Positions 21,775 through 34,578 of a stretch of DNA of 64,000 bases are shown here, piece by piece; position 1 is the stretch's first letter, and each line of letters starts with the position of its first letter. The stretch spans positions 2,624,001 through 2,688,000 of the forward strand of contig OZ243916.1 of assembly GCA_965213675.1 (NCBI GenBank), given 5' to 3'. Source of the stretch: an uncultured Candidatus Binatia bacterium. Its GTDB lineage: Bacteria; Desulfobacterota; Binatia; UBA9968; JAJDTQ01. Below the pieces are notes generated by a model. That model made no database searches. It was not told the DNA's origin and saw nothing but the letters and a program-made list of their open reading frames with translations. The translations under genes were made by a program, and so were the position numbers.

Positions 21775-22398
21775 ATCCGTACCAACATCTATATCGACGG
21801 TTTTAATCTCTACTATCGTGCGCTTCGGGGTACGCCTTACCGTTGGCTCGATATTGGGAGGCTGGCGCGGACCCTGCTTTCCCGTCATCACATATGCCGG
21901 ATACGGTACTTCACCGCCTTGGTCGCCAACCGCGCTGGCGACTCCACCCAGGCGCAACGGCAACAGGCTTACATCCGCGCCTTGCAGACCATACCCGACT
22001 TGACCATCCATTACGGCCATTTCCTTGCGAAAACCAAGCGGAGACCGCTCGCTCGCCAACCAAATACCGGCCCACGCACCGTCGAGATACTGGACACCGA
22101 GGAGAAGGGTTCAGACGTCAATCTCGCCTCCTACCTGTTGCTGGACGGCTTTGAAGGAGAATACGAGATGGCCGTCGTGATCTCCAACGACTCCGACCTG
22201 GAACTTCCCGTCCGAATGGCACGGACCAAGCTCGGAAAGGAGGTAGGAGTCTTCGACCCGAGCCGCAGACGGAGCTTTCAGTTGCACGACGCGGCGTCTT
22301 GGTACAGACCGCTACGCGAGGGTCCACTGCGCGCCAGTCTTTTCCCTGATACCGTCCGGGACGCGCATGGCTCCATAACCAAACCAGCAGGCTGGTAG
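21775..22398 (+). CDS. NYN-domain (LabA/DUF88, PIN-like) ribonuclease; apparent ATC start
   Basis: In frame with ORF 21919: '(I)RTNIYIDGFNLYY...YFTA...EEKGSDVNLA...ISNDSDL'; no ATG/GTG/TTG between the upstream TAG (21691) and the DGFN motif. Confidence 0.85.
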   Translation: MRTNIYIDGFNLYYRALRGTPYRWLDIGRLARTLLSRHHICRIRYFTALVANRAGDSTQAQRQQAYIRALQTIPDLTIHYGHFLAKTKRRPLARQPNTGPRTVEILDTEEKGSDVNLASYLLLDGFEGEYEMAVVISNDSDLELPVRMARTKLGKEVGVFDPSRRRSFQLHDAASWYRPLREGPLRASLFPDTVRDAHGSITKPAGW

Positions 22399-24036: not shown

Positions 24037-24601
24037 TGTACCTGGTGGCGGTGATGGACTGGGCCACCCGCCGGGTGCTCTCCTGGCGGCTGTCGAACAC
24101 CCTCGATGCCCGCTTCTGTGTCGAGGCCCTCTCAGAGGCTCTGGAACGCTACGGTCCTCCCGAGATCTTCAACACGGACCAAGGCAGCCAGTTCACCAGC
24201 CTGGAGTTCACCTCCGTGCTCAAGGACGCCGGCATTGCCATCTCCATGGACGGCAGGGGCCGGTGCATGGACAACATCTTCATCGAGCGCCTGTGGCGCT
24301 CCCTCAAGTACGAGGCCGTCTACCTGCACGAGTTGACCGACGGCTTCGCCGCCCAAAGGGCCATCGCCAACTGGCTCCACTTCTACAACACCCAAAGACC
24401 TCATTCCGCCCTCGCCGGCTCCACCCCGGCGGAGGCCTACGAACCAGGACTCCACAGGCCGGACCTCACACCCCGCCCGCCCCTCTGACAGTTCCATCGG
24501 AACACGAAGACGTGATAAACGGGACCTTGGCGGCATGATCGATCGTCTGGAATACACCTTAACTCCGCCGCCTTCCTGTCCTACAAACCAGGACCACCTC
24601 A
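24037..24601 (+). mobile_element. 3' fragment of a second IS3-family element, inverted near-identical copy of the 25074-26405 element
   Basis: 'YLVAVMDWATR...NTDQGSQF...DNIFIERLW'; terminal ...CCAGGACCACCTCA at 24601. Confidence 0.88.
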
Positions 24602-24740
24602 GTCCGTGCCCGCCCAGTCGTCCACGGCATCCGGAAGAAGCAGCTGCTGCGAACGATCATCGCCTGGAATGTGTGTCATGTCCCCATCATACCAAACTCG
24701 CCCGCTCCCCGTGATGGCAGGTCGAGTTCTCACACGGGCT
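24602..24740 (-). mobile_element. Left end and N-terminus of an IS1182-like element, truncated by the IS3 end
   Basis: ATG 24679: 'MTHIPGDDRSQQLLLPDAVDDW'; end motif AGCCCGTGTGAGAACTC (24740-24724). Confidence 0.65.
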
Positions 24741-24743
24741 ATG

Positions 24744-24770
24744 CGCCGGGACCCCAACGGGGTCCCGGCC
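24744..24770 (-). terminator. Hairpin downstream of the Zn-ribbon gene
   Basis: GCCGGGGACCCC-aac-GGGGTCCCGGC. Confidence 0.45.
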
Positions 24771-24775
24771 TCTGT

Positions 24776-24925
24776 CTAACACCGATTGTACGTTGTACTC
24801 TGGCCGCGACCGCAGTTGCCACAGGGCGGCAATCGGTCATCGGGGTCGTTCAGATACACACTCCAGTTGCAGTTGGTGCAGCAATATCTACCTATACCGG
24901 GTTTCTCGCCAATGTTGTAAGCCAC
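24776..24925 (-). CDS. 49-aa zinc-ribbon microprotein
   Basis: GTG start with AGGAGG RBS; 'MAYNIGEKPGIGRYCCTNCNWSVYLNDPDDRLPPCGNCGRGQSTTYNRC' has two CxxC pairs. Confidence 0.75.
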   Translation of the reverse strand: MAYNIGEKPGIGRYCCTNCNWSVYLNDPDDRLPPCGNCGRGQSTTYNRC

Positions 24926-25057
24926 TGAGAACCTCCTATTCGTCACTTCTCCCCCAAGATAACGGGGTGCCTCCGGCCTTGACCAGGGAGTTGTAAGTGC
25001 GCCACAAGGTGGGTTGACCTTCGTCCCTAGGGTGTGGAAACGCCAAGTCATGTGCAT

Positions 25058-26509
25058 CTAGCACTTCTTCTTGTGAGGTGATCCTGGTTTGTAGGACAGG
25101 AAGGCGGCGGAGATAAGGTGTATTCCAGACGATCGATCATGCCGCCAAGGTCCCGTTTATCAGGTCTTCGTGTTCCGAAGGAACTGTCAGAGGGGCGGGC
25201 GGGGTGTGAGGTCCGGCCTGCCTCTGGAGTCCTCGTTCGTAGGCCTCCGCCGGGGTGGAGCCGGCGAGGGCGGAATGAGGTCTTTGGGTGTTGTAGAAGT
25301 GGAGCCAGTTGGCGATGGTCCTTTGGGCGGCGAAGCCGTCGGTCAGCTCGTGCAGGTAGACGGCCTCGTACTTGAGGGAGCGCCACAGGCGCTCGATGAA
25401 GATGTTGTCCATGCACCGGCCCCTGCCGTCCATGGAGATGGCAATGCCGGCGTCCTTGAGCACGGAGGTGAACTCCAGGCTGGTGAACTGGCTGCCTTGG
25501 TCCGTGTTGAAGATCTCGGGAGGACCGTAGCGTTCCAGAGCCTCTGAGAGGGCCTCGACACAGAAGCGGGCATCGAGGGTGTTCGACAGCCTCCAGGAGA
25601 GCACCCGGCGGGTGGCCCAGTCCATGACCGCCACCAGGTACAGGAAGCCACTCTGGACAGGGATATAGGTGATGTCGGAGGTCCACACGTGATTGGGCCG
25701 TTCGATGGCGACGCCCTTGAGCCGATAGGGATAGACCCGGTGCTCGGGGTGCGGTCGGGTGGTGCGCGGCGCCTGGTAGATGGCCTGGAGCCCCATCAGG
25801 CGCATCAGACGCCGCACCCGGTGACGACCCACTCGGACTCGCTCCCGCCACAGATGGCGGACCATCTGGCGGCTGCCGTAGAAGGGGTACTCCAGGAACA
25901 GCTCATCGATCCGGCGCATCAACGCCAGATTCTCCGCGCTCTCGCCCTTGGGCCTGTGGTACACAGAGGATCGGCTCACTCGAAGCAGATGGCATTGACG
26001 GCTCAAGCTGAGCTTGGGATGGCCGGGCTCGATCATCCCCCGGCGCTTCTCCCGGCTCACCACTTGAGCCCCTTGGCCAAAAAATCCCGCTCCACCGTCA
26101 GCTCCCCGATCTTCGCGTGCAGGTCCCGGACCTCCCCCTCGTGGTCTCCTCGTGCCCGCTCGGCTCCCTTCGAGAACACCTCCTTCATCCCCTCCACCGC
26201 ACGCTGCTTCCACGTGCTCACTTGGTTCGGATGGACCTTGTGCCGCGACGCGAGCTCCTGGATCGTCTTGTCTCCGCGCAGCGCCTCCAGCGCTACCTTC
26301 GCCTTGAACTCTCCGCTGAACCGTCGTCGTGTCCTCATTGCGTATCCCTCCCTGAGTCGGTGGAATACACCTTAGCTACCTGTCCGTTTTTCCGGGACCA
26401 CCTCATTGATCGGCTTGGGGGCCGATCGCTTATGAGCCTTGACGGTTACCGGTTTCGGTCCCGGCTTTTTGCCTGTCCTCGTTGGGCGGCAAACCACCTT
26501 CTTGGCCAT
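25058..26509 (-). pseudogene. 38-aa Lys/Pro-rich microprotein gene interrupted by the IS3 element
   Basis: AAGGAGGT RBS + ATG 26509; removing the IS and one TTG gives MAKKVVCRPTRTGKKPGPKPVTVKAHKRSAPKPIKKKC then TAG (25060-25058). Confidence 0.7.
25074..26405 (-). mobile_element. Complete IS3-family element (1332 bp) with 3-bp TSD
   Basis: Ends TGAGGTGATCCTGG.../...CCGGGACCACCTCA; TTG duplicated at 25071-25073 and 26406-26408; orfA 26057-26338, orfB ending 25137. Confidence 0.92.
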
Positions 26510-26737
26510 ACGCACCACCTCCTTCCTATAGGGAATTGAGGCGAGGGTTACCTAACGCTTCCCGACGACGCCCGGTAGAGGTCGCGGCGGGTTTCTCAAC
26601 CTCCGCCATTTCAAGCTGAGGCAGGACCGACCTCCCCAAACACCGGCTCATTCACCTCATCCTCTGTAAATCATCCACCCGATTCCTCGCATGATGGTCT
26701 TCTCATTGGCGATATCGCCAGGTATACTTTGGCTACT

Positions 26738-26800
26738 AAGGTAAGGTATGGCCTCAATGATGTCAATACTCGACACGCAATATATGTCTAACTCGACATA
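26738..26800 (-). promoter_or_regulatory. Divergent promoter with candidate XRE operators
   Basis: Minus strand TTGACA (26766-26761), 17 bp, TACCTT (26743-26738); TGTC-N7-GACA (26761-26775) and TATGTC-N6-GACATA (26783-26800). Confidence 0.65.
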
Positions 26801-26802
26801 CT

Positions 26803-27153
26803 ATGGCCTCTCCTTCTGAAATCTTTCGGCAGCGTTTGAGGGCGGCCAGGGGTACACGCGACTGGAGTCAAAGCGATTTGGCCCAGCGCGCTGGCTTGCC
26901 GCCTAGTTCGATAGCGCACTTTGAAACCGGATCACGCAAGCCATCTTTCGACACCTTGCGGCGACTCGCTAGTGCATTGGAAGTTACGACCGATTACCTT
27001 TTGGGAAGAGTCGAGGAACCTGGTCTTGCCGAAGCCGGAGACCCGTTATTCCGAGATATCGGTAATCTCACCGGCAGCGACCGCGAACTAGCCAGGGACT
27101 TCCTCAAGATGTTGGCGGACCGCAACGCAGCCAAACACAAGGAAGGCAAATGA
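26803..27153 (+). CDS. XRE-family HTH transcriptional regulator (CapH/ImmR-like)
   Basis: 'RLRAAR...SQSDLA...IAHFETGSRKPSFDTLRRLA..LEVTTDYLLGR'. Confidence 0.92.
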   Translation: MASPSEIFRQRLRAARGTRDWSQSDLAQRAGLPPSSIAHFETGSRKPSFDTLRRLASALEVTTDYLLGRVEEPGLAEAGDPLFRDIGNLTGSDRELARDFLKMLADRNAAKHKEGK

Positions 27154-28013
27154 GTGTGGCGTTTGGTCTGGAGATGGCCGAAAGGGAAGGGGAAGCCATA
27201 GTCGGTAGGCTAGGCATTCATTCCCTGCCCATAGATCCTATCGAGATTGCGAAACACCACGGCATCGCGGTTGAACCAAAACCCGACGCCGCTGAGGGTG
27301 TGTCCGGAATGCTCCTTCGTCACGGCGACACCTTTGGGATTCTCTATGCCACTCACATCGCAAGCAAGGGTTTCCAGAGGTTCAGCATAGCCCATGAGCT
27401 TGGGCATTATTTCCTTGATGGACACATAGATCATGTCCTCAAAGACGGCCCTCACAGCTCAAATGCAGGTTTCTCTTCCCCCAACCCTTACGAACGGGAA
27501 GCCGACAGTTTTGCGGCTGGCCTGCTGATGCCGGGTCACCTATTCCGCAAAGAGCTGAACCAAGAAGCCCCAGGGCTAGCTACAATTGAGGCATTGGCCG
27601 ATCTCTGTCAGACATCCCTAACAGCGACTGCAATTCGGTACGCCAAATTGACCGAAGACGCGGTCGCCGTGGTCGTGAGTACCGGCAAAGCCATCAATTT
27701 TTGTCGGCTCTCGGATGCCATGACGTCGTTGGCTGAGATCACATGGCCAAAAAAGGGCGATCTTGTTCCGTATGGCACCGCTACTGCGGACATCAATGCC
27801 GATCCTGCCCGGGTCGCCCTGTTGGACCGCGCAGAAGCGGAAATCGACATCCTGGACTGGTTGGGCGGTCAACGGTCCGTGCAAGGGACAGAACAGGTCA
27901 TGGGACTCGGCAGCTACGGCAGGACCCTTACTGTTCTTTCTGTAGATGACATGTGTGAAGAGGACGAAGAAGAAAGCCTAACCGAGAGTTGGACTCCACG
28001 TTTGCGTCGATAA
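27150..28013 (+). CDS. ImmA/IrrE-family Zn metallopeptidase (CapP-like)
   Basis: 'RFSIAHELGH', 'EREADSFAAGLLMP', 'TSLTATAIRY'; ATGA overlap with XRE. Confidence 0.9.
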   Translation: MSVAFGLEMAEREGEAIVGRLGIHSLPIDPIEIAKHHGIAVEPKPDAAEGVSGMLLRHGDTFGILYATHIASKGFQRFSIAHELGHYFLDGHIDHVLKDGPHSSNAGFSSPNPYEREADSFAAGLLMPGHLFRKELNQEAPGLATIEALADLCQTSLTATAIRYAKLTEDAVAVVVSTGKAINFCRLSDAMTSLAEITWPKKGDLVPYGTATADINADPARVALLDRAEAEIDILDWLGGQRSVQGTEQVMGLGSYGRTLTVLSVDDMCEEDEEESLTESWTPRLRR

Positions 28014-28076
28014 GCTCGCGCGGGCTTGGGCGTGACGCGGTCATCACTGCTTTGAATAGCGCACGGAGTCTATCCA

Positions 28077-28946
28077 ATGGCTAAAGAGGAAAGCGTAACC
28101 GTCTACCGGGCTCTCAGCTTGGGGGCTGGAGCCCAGAGTTCAGTTCTAGCGCTCTTGCTTTCTCGGTCCGATGCTCGCTTGGCCAAGCTTGGTTATCGGA
28201 AACCCGACGTCGCCATCTTTGCCGACACTGGATGGGAGCCTGAGTACGTTTACCGCCATCTGGACTGGCTAGAAAAACAACTGACCTATCCATTAGTCCG
28301 GGTATCCGAGGGCAATCTAAGGACGAACCTGAAGCGAGGTCGAACTGTATCGGGTCATCGTTTCGTTGATGTACCCCTATTCACGATCGATCCGGGTGGC
28401 AAGAAGGGGATGCTGCGGCGGCAGTGCACGAACCACTACAAGATACGGCCCATCTATCGACGAATTCGGAGGCTTGCTGGTGGACAACCTGGCCGACCGT
28501 TTCCCAGAGATACCCATGCCGAAATGTGGCTTGGTATTTCCCTGGACGAGGTGGGCCGCATGAAGCCGAGTAGGGAGTCGTGGGTCGAACATCGCTGGCC
28601 TCTTGTCGACATCGGCATGACGCGTGAGGATTGCATCGACTGGTTCAACTCTGAGTATCCAGAACGCCATCTGCCTCGGTCAGCCTGCGTCATCTGCCCC
28701 TACCGCTCAGACGACCACTGGTCGGAACTCAAGGAGCGTGAACCGGCGAGCTACAAGGAAGCCATCGAGTTCGACCGCTGGCTTCGGAGAAGCACCGACA
28801 CCCCTATACGGAAGCTGTTGAATGGCCGACCGTACCTGCACGCGGCTCGCCGTCCCCTCGCCAGTGTCATGGAAGACCGGGAGACGGGCCGCGCGACCAG
28901 CATCGACAACTTCAACAACGAGTGCGAGGGCCTCTGTGGTGTCTGA
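28077..28946 (+). CDS. PAPS-reductase-like PP-loop (HUP) protein, Cys-rich
   Basis: 'SLGAGAQSS', 'FADTGWE', 'RQCT..YKI.PI', 'GISLDE', 'RSACVICPY', C-terminal 'ECEGLCGV'. Confidence 0.75.
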   Translation: MAKEESVTVYRALSLGAGAQSSVLALLLSRSDARLAKLGYRKPDVAIFADTGWEPEYVYRHLDWLEKQLTYPLVRVSEGNLRTNLKRGRTVSGHRFVDVPLFTIDPGGKKGMLRRQCTNHYKIRPIYRRIRRLAGGQPGRPFPRDTHAEMWLGISLDEVGRMKPSRESWVEHRWPLVDIGMTREDCIDWFNSEYPERHLPRSACVICPYRSDDHWSELKEREPASYKEAIEFDRWLRRSTDTPIRKLLNGRPYLHAARRPLASVMEDRETGRATSIDNFNNECEGLCGV

Positions 28947-28956
28947 GACAGGAACC

Positions 28957-30186
28957 GTGACAATCAGGCCAGAATATCCCTTGTACCCATACCAAAGACA
29001 AGTTCTGGCCGACATTCTCCGTGCACTATCATCTCCTGAACCTCGTGTGGTCGCTCATCTTCCTACCGGCGCCGGCAAGACTCGGATCGCAGCACACGCC
29101 GCTTGTCACCTCCTCAACGAAAGGGACACCGAAGACTCTCTCGTCATCTGGCTGGCAGCCACAGAGGAACTTTGCGAACAGGCGGCCGACCAACTGTCAG
29201 ACGCGTGGACGCATCTGGGCCGGCGCGAGGTCTCCATTCATCCCTATTGGGGAAGCCAGTCAACTGACTTGCGACGTCTCCCCTCCGGTTTCTTGGTGAC
29301 CGGCCTTGCCAAGCTACGCTCCATTGCCTTCCAAGACAACACCCTTCTCGCGCACCTAGCCCAGTGTGCCGCGGCCGTCATCTTTGACGAAGCTCACCAG
29401 GCGATCGCCAACACCTACTCCTACATTACAGACCAGCTTTGCAGTGTAAGGCCACCCCTTCTCGGCCTCACAGCCACTCCCGGGCGGACCGCGAATATCA
29501 CGGATGCCGACTTTCGGCTTGCAGAGATGTTCAAGCACAACAAGGTTTCTATAGATCCAAGGGGGCACGACAACCCAGTTACCTATCTGATTCAAAACCA
29601 CTACTTGGCCGATCCACGCTTCGTGCCAATCGGCTTCGATTCGGACACGACGATCACTGAGCCCCTGCCCGGGGCCGACTACAGCACAGAGGATCTCAAG
29701 GACATGGGCCGGAGCCGCCAACGCACACGCAAGATCGTAGAACTAGCCGAGGATGCAGCGGCACGCCATCCCCGCACTATAGTGTTTTGCCCGTCTGTCG
29801 AAAGTGCTCTGGAATGCACCGACCTCCTTCACGCAAAGGGTGTCATTGCTGATGTTGTCACCGCTGAGACCCCCATAGAAGTTCGTCAAACCGCCATCTC
29901 AGCCTTCCGAAGTGACCGCAGGGAACACATGGTGATATTGAACTACGGTGTACTGACCGCCGGGTTCGACGCTCCGCGCACCCGATGCGTCATCATCGCG
30001 CGGCCAACAACGTCGCTAGTGCTTTACTCACAGATGGCCGGGCGGGCGATGCGCGGCCCTAAAGCCGGTGGAAATTCAAAGGCCGAGATACTCACGGTGG
30101 CAGACACGAACCTACCGGGGTTCGGGTCCGTGACTGATGCCTTCACAAATTGGGAGCACCTATGGTCAACCAACTCGCCGAATTAG
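28957..30186 (+). CDS. SF2 DEAD/DEAH-box helicase (ResIII-like)
   Basis: 'LPTGAGKT', 'DEAH', 'TATP', 'GFDAP', 'QMAGRAMRG'; GTG start 28957 (or 28939). Confidence 0.9.
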   Translation: MTIRPEYPLYPYQRQVLADILRALSSPEPRVVAHLPTGAGKTRIAAHAACHLLNERDTEDSLVIWLAATEELCEQAADQLSDAWTHLGRREVSIHPYWGSQSTDLRRLPSGFLVTGLAKLRSIAFQDNTLLAHLAQCAAAVIFDEAHQAIANTYSYITDQLCSVRPPLLGLTATPGRTANITDADFRLAEMFKHNKVSIDPRGHDNPVTYLIQNHYLADPRFVPIGFDSDTTITEPLPGADYSTEDLKDMGRSRQRTRKIVELAEDAAARHPRTIVFCPSVESALECTDLLHAKGVIADVVTAETPIEVRQTAISAFRSDRREHMVILNYGVLTAGFDAPRTRCVIIARPTTSLVLYSQMAGRAMRGPKAGGNSKAEILTVADTNLPGFGSVTDAFTNWEHLWSTNSPN

Positions 30187-32015
30187 AACACGCAGACCGC
30201 AACCTTTTTCCGAGCAATTTCACGATAAGGGCGCTGCGGGATAGCCGGTACCACAACACCGCCTACGCCATTGCTGAACTGATTGACAACTCCGTTGAAG
30301 CACACGCCGAGCAAATAGACCTCCTCTGCATGGAGCGGGTGCAAAACACCGCCCTCCAAAAGCGTCGACGAGTATCCGAGGTGGCCGTCATCGATAACGG
30401 GGTGGGAATGGATGTCAAAACGCTCTTCGAGGCCCTGAAATTTGGAGGAGGAACCCGTCACCACGCAGACCGAGGGATCGGAAAATATGGAATGGGCTTG
30501 CCCACGTCGTCAATGTCTCAGTGCAAAAGAGTAGACGTCTGGACATGGCAGGAGGACATAGATTCGGCGTGGCATTCCAGTATTGACGCCGACGAGATCG
30601 AGCAAGGGGACCACAGAGCTCCGCTCCCCGACCGAGACACACCCATACCGAAGGTGTGGTTAGAGGCGGCCAGCGACCGCATACTCAACCATCGCTCCGG
30701 TACAATTGTCGTATGGACAAAGCTCGATAAGATCCAATGGCGCACCGGCGGCACCATCCTTCGGCACACCGCGCGAGAGGTCGGTCGTATCCACCGCTAT
30801 TGGATTGATGCCGACATGACCAAGATACGCATCGGGTATTTTCTCAACAACCGACCGACAAATATCGAAAACGAAGGCCATATTGTGGCCAACGATCCTC
30901 TCTACTTAATGACTCCTTCCTCGACACCCGCACCATGGGACAACAAGCCAATGTTCAAGCAATGGGCGACACCTACCGAATATACGGCCACTGTGGACGA
31001 CAAAGAGGTGCCGATCCAGGTACGATACTCCATCGTCACACCCGAAGCACTACAGACCACCGTCGTTGCGCAGCTTCCCGGCGCGACAGACCACGGCAAA
31101 CACGCTAGACATAACATCGGGGTATCTGTTGTTCGAGAGGATAGGGAGATTGTACTCGAAACGGCCTTCCTCCGAGAGGGCGGGAGTGCAGAAAATCCAC
31201 AAAACCGGTGGTGGGGCTGTCAAGTCCAATTCGGTCGTGTTTGCGACGAGTTGTTTGGAGTAGACCACAACAAACAAATGGTCGCTAACTTTACCCACGC
31301 TGCAAAGACTCTCCTCCAAGACGACCGTCCGAATCAAGTCATACTTGACGAGTTGGGCGTCGACGATGACATCATCTACACCATAGTTGCAGACATCCGC
31401 GACCAGACCCGCGCAATGATGGCCACCATTAGACAAATGTTTGCACAACGACGACCTCAACCACATGGACCTACGACGAATAATCCCGAAAAGAAGGCGG
31501 CAAAGACCGCCACTGAGGCTGACCGAGACGCGATGGAATCTGGCAAGGAGAACCCCACCAAGACGGACCGGGATCGGGACGACATTCCGCCAGAGGATCG
31601 CGAGGCTGAACTTACCAAACAGTTCATGAACGCCGGGCAAACGGCTCAGGACGCCAAGACGCTCGCCAAACTGCTTGTGCAGGAGGGCCTTTCTTACCAA
31701 TTCAACTCGATGCAGCTCGACGGTTTCCAAATATTCAATGTTCGGTCGAACCAAGGGGTTCTACACATCAATCTGAACACCGATCATCCCATTTATGACC
31801 TCCTCAAACACATTGAAGACGACCTTCCTGAGGATGTCGACGAGAACAATCCCGCGTTCCAGGCCAGCGTGGCGATCAGATTGTTATTGTCATCGTGGGC
31901 TCGAATGGAGGATCAAACCGAATCACGCGAACAGCGCGCACACATACAGGACACCGCCATGAACTGGGGACGTCAGGTTGATAAAGCTATCAGCCAGTTG
32001 CGCGACAGAGACTGA
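30162..32015 (+). CDS. GHKL (HATPase_c_3 / MORC-like) ATPase
   Basis: 'AIAELIDNS', 'IDNGVGMD', 'GIGKYGMG', 'GTIVVW'; GGGAG RBS before ATG 30162. Confidence 0.88.
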   Translation: MVNQLAELEHADRNLFPSNFTIRALRDSRYHNTAYAIAELIDNSVEAHAEQIDLLCMERVQNTALQKRRRVSEVAVIDNGVGMDVKTLFEALKFGGGTRHHADRGIGKYGMGLPTSSMSQCKRVDVWTWQEDIDSAWHSSIDADEIEQGDHRAPLPDRDTPIPKVWLEAASDRILNHRSGTIVVWTKLDKIQWRTGGTILRHTAREVGRIHRYWIDADMTKIRIGYFLNNRPTNIENEGHIVANDPLYLMTPSSTPAPWDNKPMFKQWATPTEYTATVDDKEVPIQVRYSIVTPEALQTTVVAQLPGATDHGKHARHNIGVSVVREDREIVLETAFLREGGSAENPQNRWWGCQVQFGRVCDELFGVDHNKQMVANFTHAAKTLLQDDRPNQVILDELGVDDDIIYTIVADIRDQTRAMMATIRQMFAQRRPQPHGPTTNNPEKKAAKTATEADRDAMESGKENPTKTDRDRDDIPPEDREAELTKQFMNAGQTAQDAKTLAKLLVQEGLSYQFNSMQLDGFQIFNVRSNQGVLHINLNTDHPIYDLLKHIEDDLPEDVDENNPAFQASVAIRLLLSSWARMEDQTESREQRAHIQDTAMNWGRQVDKAISQLRDRD

Positions 32016-32020
32016 TTAAC

Positions 32021-32902
32021 ATGGACGGACGGCCAGGAGAAACGTTGCGCAGTGTTTGTTCACGTGCCAATCGTCTGATTGTCGCGGCACCATACATCAA
32101 GAACAACGCCCTTACCAAGGTAGTCGCCGAGGTGAGGCCGGAAACCTCCGTCGTCTGCATCACGAGATGGAGCCCACATGATATCGCTATGGGTGTGTCC
32201 GACACCGAATGTCGGACCTTTGTCGTGCAGCGTGGAGGATCGTTCAGACTTCACCCGTCACTGCACGCCAAATATTACCGGGCTGATGACACAGTGCTCG
32301 TCGGTTCCGCGAATCTGACAAATTCCGCTTTGGGCTGGTCGTCACAGGCTAATTTAGAGATTCTCTGCACGCCAGGAGACGACTTCGACGCGGACACCTT
32401 TCAGCGGCGCTTGTTCGAGGAGTCACGGGAGATCAGCGATGAAGAGTTCTCACATTGGGAGTCCATCACCGACTTGGGCGTTCAGATCATGCGCAGGGCG
32501 ACTGGTGACGTTCCCCGGCTCGATACTTGGAGACCGGCAACTCGTGACCCAACGCACTTAGAAGTCGCGTATCGCGCCGACTACGATCAGATAGCATCTC
32601 TCGACGAGCAAAGATCGGCACAGCGCGACATTCAGGCCCTCCGAGTTCCCCCAGGATTAACCAACCAACAGGTCCGCGCCTGGATCTCAGGCTGCCTCCT
32701 TGCGGCTTCCTTCACCAACACCGTACTCCGGCTGCGTAATGCAGAGGCTCCGGACATATTGCGTTCCTTGGCAGAGTTCTACAAACTCAGCGCAACCGAT
32801 GCACGAAGGGACATGGAAACTGTCGAGACTTGGCTTTCATTCTTTGCTCCCGCGACCCTCACTCGCATCCGAACCGCCCCGGGTTTACCGGAGCCGGATT
32901 AG
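32021..32902 (+). CDS. Phospholipase D-family (single HKD) nuclease-like protein; last ~10 aa come from an IS end
   Basis: 'VAAPYI', 'LHAKYYRADDTVLVGSANLT' = HxKx4Dx5GSxN. Confidence 0.82.
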   Translation: MDGRPGETLRSVCSRANRLIVAAPYIKNNALTKVVAEVRPETSVVCITRWSPHDIAMGVSDTECRTFVVQRGGSFRLHPSLHAKYYRADDTVLVGSANLTNSALGWSSQANLEILCTPGDDFDADTFQRRLFEESREISDEEFSHWESITDLGVQIMRRATGDVPRLDTWRPATRDPTHLEVAYRADYDQIASLDEQRSAQRDIQALRVPPGLTNQQVRAWISGCLLAASFTNTVLRLRNAEAPDILRSLAEFYKLSATDARRDMETVETWLSFFAPATLTRIRTAPGLPEPD

Positions 32903-33520
32903 TGTGAGTCAGGCCACCAGGGTCGACTCTTGGCACTGCTGATAGTACGTGTCTTCGAGTTCAGCCGGCGGCACATAGCCGACGCCTTCCAGGAGTCGGC
33001 GGTGGTTGAACCAGTCGACCCATTCGAGGGTGGCGAACTCGACCGCTTCGAGGTGGCGCCAGGGGCCGCGTTGACGGATCACCTCGGTCTTGCACAAACC
33101 GATCATGGACTCGGCCAGGGCATTGTCGTAGGAATCCCCGACGCGGCCCACCGACGGCTCGATCCCGGCGTCAGCCAGACGCTCGGTGTAGCGAATCGAC
33201 AAGTACTGGGTGCCACGGTCGCTCTGATATACTAAGACGCCGTCAGCGCCCACCGCGCGGGCATGGAGTGCCTGCTCGAGGGCGTCCAGGGCAAGGTCTG
33301 TGTGCAACGAGTCCGAGACGCGCCAGCCCACGATACGACGCGCATAGGCATCGACAACAAAGGCGACGTAGACGAAGCGACGCCAGATCGCCACATAGGT
33401 CAGGTCCGCCACCCACAACGCATTCGGCCGGCTAGCCTCAAACACCCGGTTCACCCGATCCGCGGGTCGCGTGGGCTCGTTCGCCCCCAGGGTCGTCTTC
33501 GACCGCCGACCCCGGACCAC
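32870..33520 (-). mobile_element. Truncated IS3-family (IS51-type) element: OrfB C-terminal part plus right end
   Basis: 'WVADLTY', 'SDRGTQY', 'YDNALAES'; end motif CGAACCGCCCCGGGTTTACCGGAG at 32870. Confidence 0.85.
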
Positions 33521-33554: not shown

Positions 33555-33755
33555 TCACCCCGTCTCGAACTCCAGCCCGGTCAACTTTACACGCGATGAC
33601 CGCTCCGACAGGTGCTGTATTTCCACGCCAACCACCTCATTGGACTCGTTGTAGTCGAGCACAACACCCGGGGCGACTTCTTCCGATTCGACGATGGCGG
33701 AATCATCAAGGCGCAGGTGAAGCGCGTCGGCCTGTCTATCTACCCGTAGTCTCAT
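33555..33755 (-). CDS. DUF2283-domain protein
   Basis: 'MRLRVDRQADALHLRL...ESEEVAPGVVLDY....VVGVEI'. Confidence 0.85.
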   Translation of the reverse strand: MRLRVDRQADALHLRLDDSAIVESEEVAPGVVLDYNESNEVVGVEIQHLSERSSRVKLTGLEFETG

Positions 33756-34216
33756 GGTCTCCCATCCGTCATGTCACGCGCTACGAACACGCTTCCCCCG
33801 TGGCCCTTTAGCTTCAGTACGGGGTAGTCCGGCCAGCGCGGGGCGATGGTGTGGTGGGCGCAGTCGGCGATGAGGTCCAGGGTCTGCAGGACGATGTGCC
33901 CCACCAAGGCCTCGCTCATGGGAGGGCCAACGATGCAATCCGTGCTCATGAAACGGTCGCAGATCGTAATGGTCACGGGTCCTGCGACGGGGCGTTCTTC
34001 CTTCCTCTCGTCCGCGTAGGTGACCACGGCGGTCCGTCGGGTTCTCAATCCGAGCCGCTCGACGACATTCTGCGGCAAAACCAGCATGGCGGCCCCGGTG
34101 TCGACGATGGCGTCGACCCGGGCGCTGCGAATGCTCGCCTCGTCGTGCAGCCCCTGCTCGAAACCAACGCGATCACCCGCGTTTTCGAGTTCCACGTTGA
34201 CACTGATCTCACGCAT
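33752..34216 (-). CDS. Clan AA (retropepsin-like) aspartic protease
   Basis: 'AIVDTGA', 'TYADER', 'ALVG..VL..LDL'; ATG 34216. Confidence 0.8.
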   Translation of the reverse strand: MREISVNVELENAGDRVGFEQGLHDEASIRSARVDAIVDTGAAMLVLPQNVVERLGLRTRRTAVVTYADERKEERPVAGPVTITICDRFMSTDCIVGPPMSEALVGHIVLQTLDLIADCAHHTIAPRWPDYPVLKLKGHGGSVFVARDMTDGRP

Positions 34217-34578
34217 ACTGCCTCTAGCCCTTCGATTTGCGTGCCTTCGGGCCACTTTCCGGGCCTTCGTTGAAGGACTTCTCCCCGGCTTCGTCCTGCG
34301 TCGCCGCAATATGTTGGATCAATAGCCGAAACCGATTGGCCGCGCCACCTGAAACCAGCGCCGCTGCGGGCCTTGGGGCCACGGGCAGGGCCGTGCGTGC
34401 CGACCTTGCGGCAACTTCCCGGAGGAAGACGCGAGCAAGGAGAATGCGTGGCATCCTCTCCGTAAGATCATCGGCTCGGCCTGCCGGAACTTTAGTTGAT
34501 GCGGCCCGCAAGGCTCGTCTTTCTCCTTCCGGCAAGGATGGCAGCAGGACCTCGTCCTGTGGTACTCACGTCTTCCCC

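Follow-up and report, generated by a model that had tools for sequence, protein, structure and literature searches.

A 64,000-nucleotide (nt) stretch of the genome of an uncultured Candidatus Binatia bacterium (contig OZ243916.1, positions 2,624,001 to 2,688,000; referred to here as the window) carries four genes on one strand (28077-32902) that overlap or nearly abut one another. They encode a PAPS-reductase-like protein (P0003), a superfamily 2 (SF2) helicase (P0004), a MORC-type GHKL ATPase (P0005), and a single-HKD nuclease of the phospholipase D (PLD) family (P0006). This cassette is a conserved, horizontally mobile unit, and relatives of its last three genes stand beside sspBCD elsewhere. 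The reading that we favor, with a confidence slightly above even, is that the cassette is a compact, horizontally mobile anti-phage or anti-plasmid modification-restriction system of Ssp (phosphorothioate) type descent. The simplest account would be an Ssp-descended system in which SspBCD was replaced by an enzyme captured from a mobile element.

Gene content and conservation of the cassette

Conservation of the cassette was surveyed using one genome per species, which yielded 33 loci with a relative of P0003, 30 of them bacterial and 3 archaeal. All four genes, in unchanged order, were found in 28 of the 30 bacterial loci, which bears out the recurrence that the initial annotation of this DNA had named as a check. 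The two exceptions were L008, whose GHKL gene runs off the end of the contig, and L013, which has a GHKL gene truncated at 144 amino acids (aa) and lacks a PLD gene behind it. The first gene was present at the same position in all 30. Going by the record titles, the bacterial loci came from at least six phyla (17 Chloroflexota, 6 Latescibacterota, 3 Alphaproteobacteria, and 1 each from Acidobacteria, Gemmatimonadetes, Binatia, and an "uncultured bacterium"). Identities across the loci were 66-83% for the PAPS-like protein, 53-81% for the helicase, 42-78% for the GHKL protein, and 43-68% for the PLD protein, and the genes upstream of the cassette differed in almost every locus. Of 24 further genomes from the genus to which the window belongs, only G010 had a cassette of this type (69% GHKL identity). 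The DNA shared between the window and G010 was limited to 26699-27199 and 28063-32850, with unrelated flanks; the G010 locus (L049) and L002 gave identical identity values and were counted once.

A maximum-likelihood tree, quickly built from 33 GHKL proteins (L008 included, L013 left out as truncated), placed the window's protein in a group with four copies from Latescibacterota (SH-aLRT 97) and mixed phyla in several clades. The P0003-linked GHKL proteins formed one clade (support 100), apart from the Ssp-linked ones. The protein collection searched held at least 120 clusters (90% identity) of the GHKL protein at 67-80% identity, all unnamed or called "hypothetical protein," the label that NCBI and JGI also give to the GHKL protein. 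Viral contigs scanned with the GHKL protein gave no relative; such a scan detects close relatives only. An apparent PLD fusion in L029 and L009 was rejected, since it came from reading past a stop codon.

The three archaeal loci (L031-L033, metagenome-assembled genomes of Nitrosopumilaceae) share only the first gene, and at 48% identity these are the nearest noncassette relatives. There, the relative forms a fusion with DUF6339 that has a DndB-family gene behind it (e.g., L033, 9215-12361), and three open reading frames (ORFs) upstream have no Pfam family.

In the window, the cassette is part of a run of six same-strand genes (26803-32902) that opens with an XRE repressor and an M78 metallopeptidase. 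The initial annotation had described four tightly packed, co-oriented genes behind an XRE-ImmA pair, and the ORFs, translations, and matches of the regulators to capH and capP agree with it. Its gaps and overlaps are right once the starts are set as in the relatives, and every catalytic motif that it listed can be read in the translations. The first gene (28077..28946, plus strand) encodes the 289-aa, stand-alone P0003. The helicase gene (28939..30186, plus strand) has an uncertain start: the candidates are ATG at 28822, GTG at 28936/28939 (8-nt overlap), and 28957 (10-nt gap), and tblastn matches to the long ORF open at residue 39-48 in most related loci. The GHKL gene (30162..32015, plus strand) may start at TTG 30150 or ATG 30162; we used the ATG, with a 25-nt overlap, because the database form of the protein has 617 aa. 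The PLD gene (32021..32902, plus strand) follows after a 5-nt gap.

P0004 is a DEAH helicase of the RadD/Rad25/type III Res-like kind with the motifs TGAGKT, FDEAHQ, TATPGR, and QMAGRAMRG. Its Pfam matches to ResIII, DEAD, and Helicase_C ranged from 3e-19 (ResIII) to 2e-13 (Helicase_C, 2.4e-13). The matches in the PDB were RadD (9e-22) and SauUSI (9e-10), and PADLOC gave PbeA (5e-17). The RadD matches, which include the NCBIfam family at 5.6e-30, are what would be expected if the genes were not defensive and instead formed a DNA-repair or genome-maintenance module of a RadD-like helicase, a MutL/MORC-like ATPase, and a nuclease, and the GHKL ATPase is related to both MutL and MORC. This explanation is extremely improbable, however. 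The NCBIfam score of 104 bits is far under the 720-bit cut-off, and the patchy horizontal distribution, the low GC content, the flanking insertion sequences (IS), and the defense-type regulators upstream all argue against it.

P0005 has a GHKL domain (HATPase_c_3, 1.2e-21) with the N, G1, and G2 boxes in place (ELIDNSVEA, DNGVGM, and GKYGMGL). Its best sequence match in the PDB was the human MORC2 ATPase (5e-5). The domain is followed by a C-terminal sequence of ~420 aa without a known family, for which the Protein Atlas returned unnamed clusters plus a lead to Morc6_S5, a candidate S5-fold transducer domain, with a feature score of 0.77.

P0006 carries a single HxK...GSxN motif (LHAKYYRADD...GSANLT), of which H82, K84, and G95-S-A-N98 were invariant in 23 sequences. 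The Pfam PLDc_2 match (3.3e-5) scored 24.2, below the gathering score of 27, and the PLD fold was found in the AlphaFold2 (AF2) model (pLDDT 90.9), with fold matches at Z scores of 13 to 15. The model has an N-domain (residues 1-149), whose closest folds were the nuclease domains of SauUSI (Z 15.1), BfiI (13.1), Nuc (13.1), NucT, and NgoAVII, among them the restriction nucleases SauUSI, BfiI, and NgoAVII, and a helical C-domain (residues 166-284). The top three folds for the C-domain were BrxA (Z 6.1), the BrxA-like 3bhw (5.9), and SspB (4.8), a range that may arise by chance for helical folds. Profile searches of the PDB and Pfam gave no sequence support for this likeness, and the resemblance of the modeled C-domain to BrxA and SspB is a structural lead only. 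A complex prediction for P0006 with P0003 gave a score of 0.01 (mark, 0.32), which counts neither for nor against binding.

The helicase-GHKL-PLD trio beside sspBCD

Relatives of the last three genes were found next to Ssp genes on plasmids and in other genomes of the genus. Of 51 plasmid records matched by the GHKL protein in tblastn, 12 cover ≥80% of the query at 32-36% identity, and 11 of these were looked at (all but H6, whose species is that of H7). An annotated PAPS-reductase-family gene lies ≤9 kb from the GHKL gene in eight of them (H1, H2, H3, H4, H7, H8, H10, and H11), six of which (H1, H3, H4, H8, H10, and H11) have DUF4007 (SspB) as well. H12 has a cysteine desulfurase gene and genes labeled hypothetical that are of SspB, SspC, and SspD size, and H5 has a cysteine desulfurase gene in an incomplete gene table. 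In the stretch of H9 that was seen, there are no PAPS-reductase or Ssp genes; an FtsK/SpoIIIE-domain gene set comes next instead. In both H4 and H9, the third gene is unrelated to the window's PLD gene and the helicase is only 26% identical.

In Pannonibacter, for example, a single run reads sspB-sspC-sspD-helicase-GHKL-PLD. Three same-genus genomes (G015, G007, and G022) likewise have sspBCD followed by the trio, and the identity of the trio to that of the window was 26-47% across these plasmids and genomes. In G015 (L050), PADLOC matched SspA (1e-124), SspB (5e-110), SspC (0), and SspD (3e-137) with the trio directly behind them, and this trio gave the same weak, generic PADLOC matches as that of the window. 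The layout in G007 and G022 was deduced from ORF sizes and tblastn only. As far as these arrangements go, the trio looks like an unnamed restriction partner of Ssp. Modules of sspBCD without a known restriction partner are put at 83.9% in the literature (PMC8092258), and the trio is a concrete, clonable candidate partner for such orphan modules.

A variant of the module was seen on an Agrobacterium plasmid (L039, 5705-17964) and an Aminobacter plasmid (L038, 7415-11865), with a 26%-identical helicase, a 33-35%-identical GHKL protein, and an unrelated 359-aa third gene where the PLD gene would be. On the Agrobacterium plasmid, two hypothetical genes and an FtsK/SpoIIIE-domain gene come after it. 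The Ssp-linked helicases of L050 (10654-12312) and L052 (10801-12411) have ~130 extra N-terminal residues, which belong to no Pfam family and are missing from the window-type helicase. In G007 (L051, 7452-9109), the Ssp-linked helicase is split over two reading frames and is probably frameshifted. This split gene and the truncated locus L013 are examples of module decay.

The likeness of the cassette to Ssp lies in the homology of P0003 to SspD (length, RxCT, CxxC, and a C-terminal Cys pair) and in the adjacency of the trio to genuine sspBCD elsewhere. The difference is that SspB, SspC, SspE, and SspFGH are absent from the cassette, and the PP-loop of P0003 is altered and its SspD score low. 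The six island proteins gave no PADLOC match to SspB (DUF4007) or SspC (BrxC-like ATPase), and no SspE, SspF, SspG, or SspH family occurred among the PADLOC matches listed at an E value of ≤0.01 (25 of 32 for the helicase). SspFGH itself, described in PMC8092258 as a Walker-A protein and an FtsK-like protein that otherwise show "no significant homology," was rejected as an identity for the trio, since that published make-up differs from helicase, GHKL, and PLD. Dnd does not fit either: P0003 had no PADLOC match to DndC, and the genome has DndC-like genes elsewhere.

Restriction-modification operons that combine a MORC-type GHKL ATPase with an SFII helicase and a nuclease have been described before (Iyer, Abhiman and Aravind 2008, PMC2292703). 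In those MORC/paraMORC operons, an HATPase_c_3 GHKL ATPase stands beside an SFII helicase and a nuclease, some of HKD type, as in the cassette, whereas the text of that paper makes no mention of PAPS, a PP-loop, or phosphorothioate. The HKD-helicase enzymes SauUSI and PbeA resemble the cassette in the PLD fold and in the helicase matches given above; in the cassette, however, the nuclease and helicase are separate proteins with the GHKL gene between them. PbeA is reported to unite HKD and SF2 parts in one protein and to act together with a CxC ABC ATPase and DndE (PMC10853773), and PbeABCD was rejected since these reported partners are absent from the cassette. DISARM was rejected because P0006 had only weak DrmC matches (3e-8) and the PADLOC scan found no DrmA or DrmB. 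Mza was rejected because only the N-terminal GHKL part of P0005 matches MzaB, with a score of 65 bits where the cut-off is 850.

A full-text literature search turned up no name for either the trio or the cassette; such neighborhoods may be listed in supplementary tables (PMC8092258, Table S2; PMC10853773, Dataset S1). No PADLOC 2.0 family covers the trio, and P0003 is matched only weakly, to SspD (44 bits), in line with the expectation in the initial annotation that no complete system would be detected. The statement that the combination was not recognizable as a named system therefore holds as to the name; the combination itself is not new, since the trio recurs beside sspBCD. It had also been considered that the helicase and GHKL genes could be a fragment of a Dnd-associated locus. 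The trio does belong to a wider set of loci, those with sspBCD, but the copy in the window is complete and represents a conserved variant, not a piece of such a locus.

The PAPS-reductase-like first gene and the proposed mark

P0003 was matched by the phage family phrog_424 ("PAPS reductase") at 2.5e-41 over residues 12-289, that is, most of its length. The other family scans gave SspD in PADLOC (4e-12) and PAPS_reduct in Pfam (0.01). The SspD model scored 44.4 bits for P0003 compared to 454.8 bits for the SspD of L050. These two proteins are 24% identical, with the F-x-D-T-G, R-x-C-T, and C-x-x-C motifs aligned and the C-terminal Cys pair aligned by eye. Judged by these alignments, P0003 is a homologue and not an orthologue of SspD. 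It had initially been likened to DndC and SspD, an assignment that we replace: by its profile matches, P0003 belongs to the "PAPS reductase" (PptA-like) family of phages and plasmids.

The name PptA comes from a PDB record. P0003 as a single sequence had no relevant match in the PDB, and the best match of its family profile was "PptA" in entry 21fy (E value of 0.0024, 20.7 bits, residues 129-239), which also holds the E. coli IscS sequence. The AF2 model of P0003 (pLDDT 92.4) has a PP-loop fold, with TM scores of ~0.4 to TtuA, CysH, LarE, GMP synthase, and NcsA. The PP-loop itself is altered. It reads SLGAGAQS (residues 14-21), so that G-A-G-A-Q-S stands in place of S-G-G-R-D-S in SspD and S-G-G-K-D-S in the DndC-like protein of the same genome. 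Alignment of 45 family members (37-83% identity) showed 22 invariant columns, including G16, G18, Q20, S21, C117, C204, C207, C283, and C287. In a profile alignment to Vibrio CysH, the PP-loop segment fell on F-G-I-Q-A-A of CysH, a weak match (E value of 0.83).

The fold of P0003 is one of several features that would also suit an abortive-infection or modification-dependent system, in which a SauUSI-like type IV enzyme or suicide nuclease is triggered by phage DNA or DNA damage and the substrate of P0003 is a nucleotide, a tRNA, or a protein rather than DNA. Among the folds matched are two tRNA thiolases, TtuA and NcsA, and LarE, a cofactor enzyme; the PLD domain has its best structural match in SauUSI, to which the helicase is related too; and the reported DNA-damage response of CapH/CapP pairs would fit such a trigger. 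Nevertheless, we consider this quite unlikely. The repeated adjacency of the trio to the DNA-marking sspBCD argues for discrimination by way of a mark on DNA, no reader domain for modified bases was found, and the linkage of P0003 is strict in all 30 bacterial loci. Of the two functions initially proposed, modification-restriction or an abortive system, the logic of modification plus restriction fits best, and abortive infection has no specific support.

The family to which P0003 belongs is large and typical of mobile elements. It comprises 4100 representative clusters at an E value of ≤0.001 (1184 at 1e-30) and occurs in 44 phage records, among them Pelagibacter, Geobacillus, Thermus, Salisaeta, Synechococcus, and Mycobacterium phages, and in 171 plasmid records. 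These relatives are 30-43% identical to P0003 and cover ~85% of it. In three plasmid records, the relative is fused to a C5 DNA methyltransferase (on a phage-like plasmid), next to a ParB gene, or next to a gene for an ArdC-like zincin, and the trio is absent from all three; in this lack of linkage the phrog_424/PptA family differs from P0003. The fusion is on the Mesorhizobium plasmid MesoLjLa5 (L042, 5398-6717), where the relative (43%) forms the C-terminal half of an annotated DNA cytosine methyltransferase and the fusion gene sits among phage-like replication and methyltransferase genes.

Such an occurrence in phages, and on three conjugative or phage-like plasmids beside ParB, ArdC-like, and methyltransferase genes without the trio, would be expected if the first gene were a counter-defense or self-protection gene of mobile elements, merely traveling with an independent helicase-GHKL-PLD restriction enzyme. 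This is very unlikely, however, for a gene that keeps its place and its overlapping frames in 30 of 30 bacterial loci despite almost wholly different flanks. Moreover, in the related loci the P0003 sequences are conserved as much as the trio or more, which also speaks against a passenger.

Under the favored reading, the cassette would work as follows. P0003, a putative Fe-S enzyme of the PptA/SspD kind, would take persulfide sulfur from a housekeeping cysteine desulfurase and write a protective mark, most likely sulfur-based, on the cell's own DNA, standing in for SspB-SspC-SspD. The trio would form an ATP-driven restriction machine, in which the SF2 helicase may translocate, the MORC-type GHKL ATPase may serve as a clamp or switch, and the single-HKD PLD nuclease may cut as a dimer. 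This machine would cut unmarked incoming DNA. In this genome, the CapH/CapP pair would raise transcription of the operon after DNA damage. A bolder form of this proposal, which we hold only tentatively and regard as doubtful, is that one PptA-like Fe-S enzyme of ~290 aa, fed by an ordinary cysteine desulfurase, suffices to place a sulfur mark on DNA without the SspB nickase or the SspC ATPase. A phage or plasmid enzyme captured by bacteria would then have given rise to the smallest known sulfur-based restriction-modification system, exchanged across phyla.

Several points weigh against this reading. First, the altered PP-loop, without the canonical Asp, is invariant in 45 of 45 family members, so the ATP-pyrophosphatase chemistry of DndC and SspD may not hold for P0003 and the mark need not be phosphorothioate. 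Because the canonical Asp is missing, we can only infer that P0003 makes phosphorothioate. Second, the match of the family to PptA is weak and partial (20.7 bits). Third, an SspB- or SspC-like DNA-targeting partner was found neither in the cassette nor in the genome, and how one small enzyme finds its sites on DNA has no explanation in this model. The SspB and SspC models (PDLC02769 and PDLC02780) gave no match in the window's genome (G000, 97.7% complete); the control genomes gave no match either, and L050 was matched (5e-110 and 0). Fourth, a marker and a nuclease placed under a damage-inducible repressor would be awkward for constant marking of DNA, and among the related loci this regulator is restricted to the window and L002/L049 (G010). 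Fifth, the P0003 family is widespread in phages and plasmids without the trio, where its role may be counter-defense and not self-marking. Finally, a separate DndC-like locus in the genome could in principle supply a mark. This DndC-like gene, with a cysteine desulfurase gene, lies ~350 kb from the cassette. The initial statement that DndD/DndE, SspB/C, and a cysteine desulfurase were missing is thus correct for the cassette, and for SspB and SspC in the genome as a whole, but not for sulfur-type genes elsewhere in the genome.

The awkward control of marker and nuclease bears on the polarity of discrimination. If the polarity were the opposite, as in SspE, the host mark would switch the trio on, the ATPase and nuclease would attack invaders, and the trio without the first gene would be inert and not toxic. 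Expression of marker and nuclease from one inducible promoter would be safer with this polarity, and both polarities are on record, as SspE needs phosphorothioate and SspFGH attacks unmodified DNA (PMC8092258). The sequences do not tell the two polarities apart, no known sulfur-binding domain was found by Pfam and PDB profile searches, and we regard SspE-like polarity as unlikely. The cassette is a natural experiment on the large phage "PAPS reductase" family, with one enzyme standing where SspBCD stands in sister loci. If P0003 marks DNA alone, this would mean a simpler biochemistry of DNA backbone modification and a compact four-gene defense tool. If it does not, the trio is still an unnamed Ssp-linked effector worth naming in catalogues of defense systems.

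Regulators, island setting, and other sulfur-type loci

The two genes ahead of the cassette encode a 116-aa capH-like XRE repressor (26803..27153, plus strand; PADLOC capH, 3e-28; Pfam HTH_3, 1.3e-15) and a 287-aa capP-like M78 (ImmA/IrrE) metallopeptidase (27150..28013, plus strand; PADLOC capP, 2.9e-66; Pfam Peptidase_M78, 1e-14). The capP match spans positions 4-241 of the 242-position profile, and the HExxH motif of the Zn-peptidase reads HELGH in the translation. CapH/CapP pairs have been described as DNA-damage-responsive regulators of CBASS, and their relatives are reported to adjoin DISARM and further known or putative defense operons on the opposite strand (bioRxiv 10.1101/2022.04.27.489752). 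Compared to these reported operons, the matches to capH and capP are strong, but the pair is not divergent here: it lies upstream on the same strand as the cassette. It is also an add-on outside the conserved core. Among the related loci, capH occurs only in L002 and L049 besides the window, and capP occurs only in the window and is missing from G010 and all 33 related loci; its absence from G010 follows from the DNA shared with the window, which skips 27199-28063.

A control region upstream (26699..26802, plus strand) is kept with G010. It has a promoter-like site, TTCTCA-17-TATACT (26700-26728), whose hexamers enclose the palindrome TTGGCGATATCGCCAG, as well as two TGTC-N7-GACA boxes. Promoter-like sites are no more numerous in the island than expected by chance. 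Both boxes are conserved in the alignment of the window with G010 and are candidate CapH operators.

GC content falls to 0.54-0.58 at ~26-33 kb of the window, and both flanks are at ~0.65. The island is flanked by an IS3-family transposase gene upstream, with nested IS remnants (25137..26213, minus strand; Pfam rve, 3.2e-25), and by a shortened one 7 nt past the PLD stop codon (32909..33520, minus strand; rve, 4.1e-23). A composite transposon was rejected, as the two IS3 genes are unrelated at the DNA level (blastn of the downstream gene against the upstream IS stretch, 24401-26600, found no nucleotide match) and no direct repeats bracket the island. No tRNA genes were found in the window. Among sequencing runs, four DNA holders were found, all from one study, and no RNA holder was listed.

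The genome has two other sulfur-type loci, both outside the window. One is on contig C1 (~2997800-3006150; L060, 3800-12153, minus strand), in the order cysteine desulfurase (Aminotran_5, 2e-82), the DndC-like gene (PADLOC DndC, 7e-112), GmrSD (DUF262/DUF1524), SNF2 helicase, ParB_N, and HTH_ParB. None of the seven ORFs scanned there encodes a DndD/DndE-like ABC ATPase. A near duplicate of the DndC gene is on contig C18. The other is on contig C21 (L061, 5508-15882). It encodes a protein of 1029 aa that joins an SspD-like PAPS domain at the N terminus (1.3e-12) to ParB domains and, divergently, a 1056-aa SNF2 helicase and a 1022-aa GHKL-like protein with a sacsin domain. The locus is a further, nonorthologous pairing of a PAPS-like protein with an SF2 helicase and a GHKL protein, and the theme therefore recurs.

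The nested IS remnants (24037-25642) contain a 102-nt inverted repeat of 97% identity (24500-24601 and 25074-25175), and a 569-nt inverted copy lies beside the IS3 transposase gene (24037-24601 and 25074-25642). Two further ORFs adjoin the island: one with a retropepsin-like aspartyl protease domain (33752-34309, minus strand; gag-asp_proteas, 1.3e-8) and one with a weak NYN ribonuclease domain (21919-22398, plus strand; 2.5e-5).

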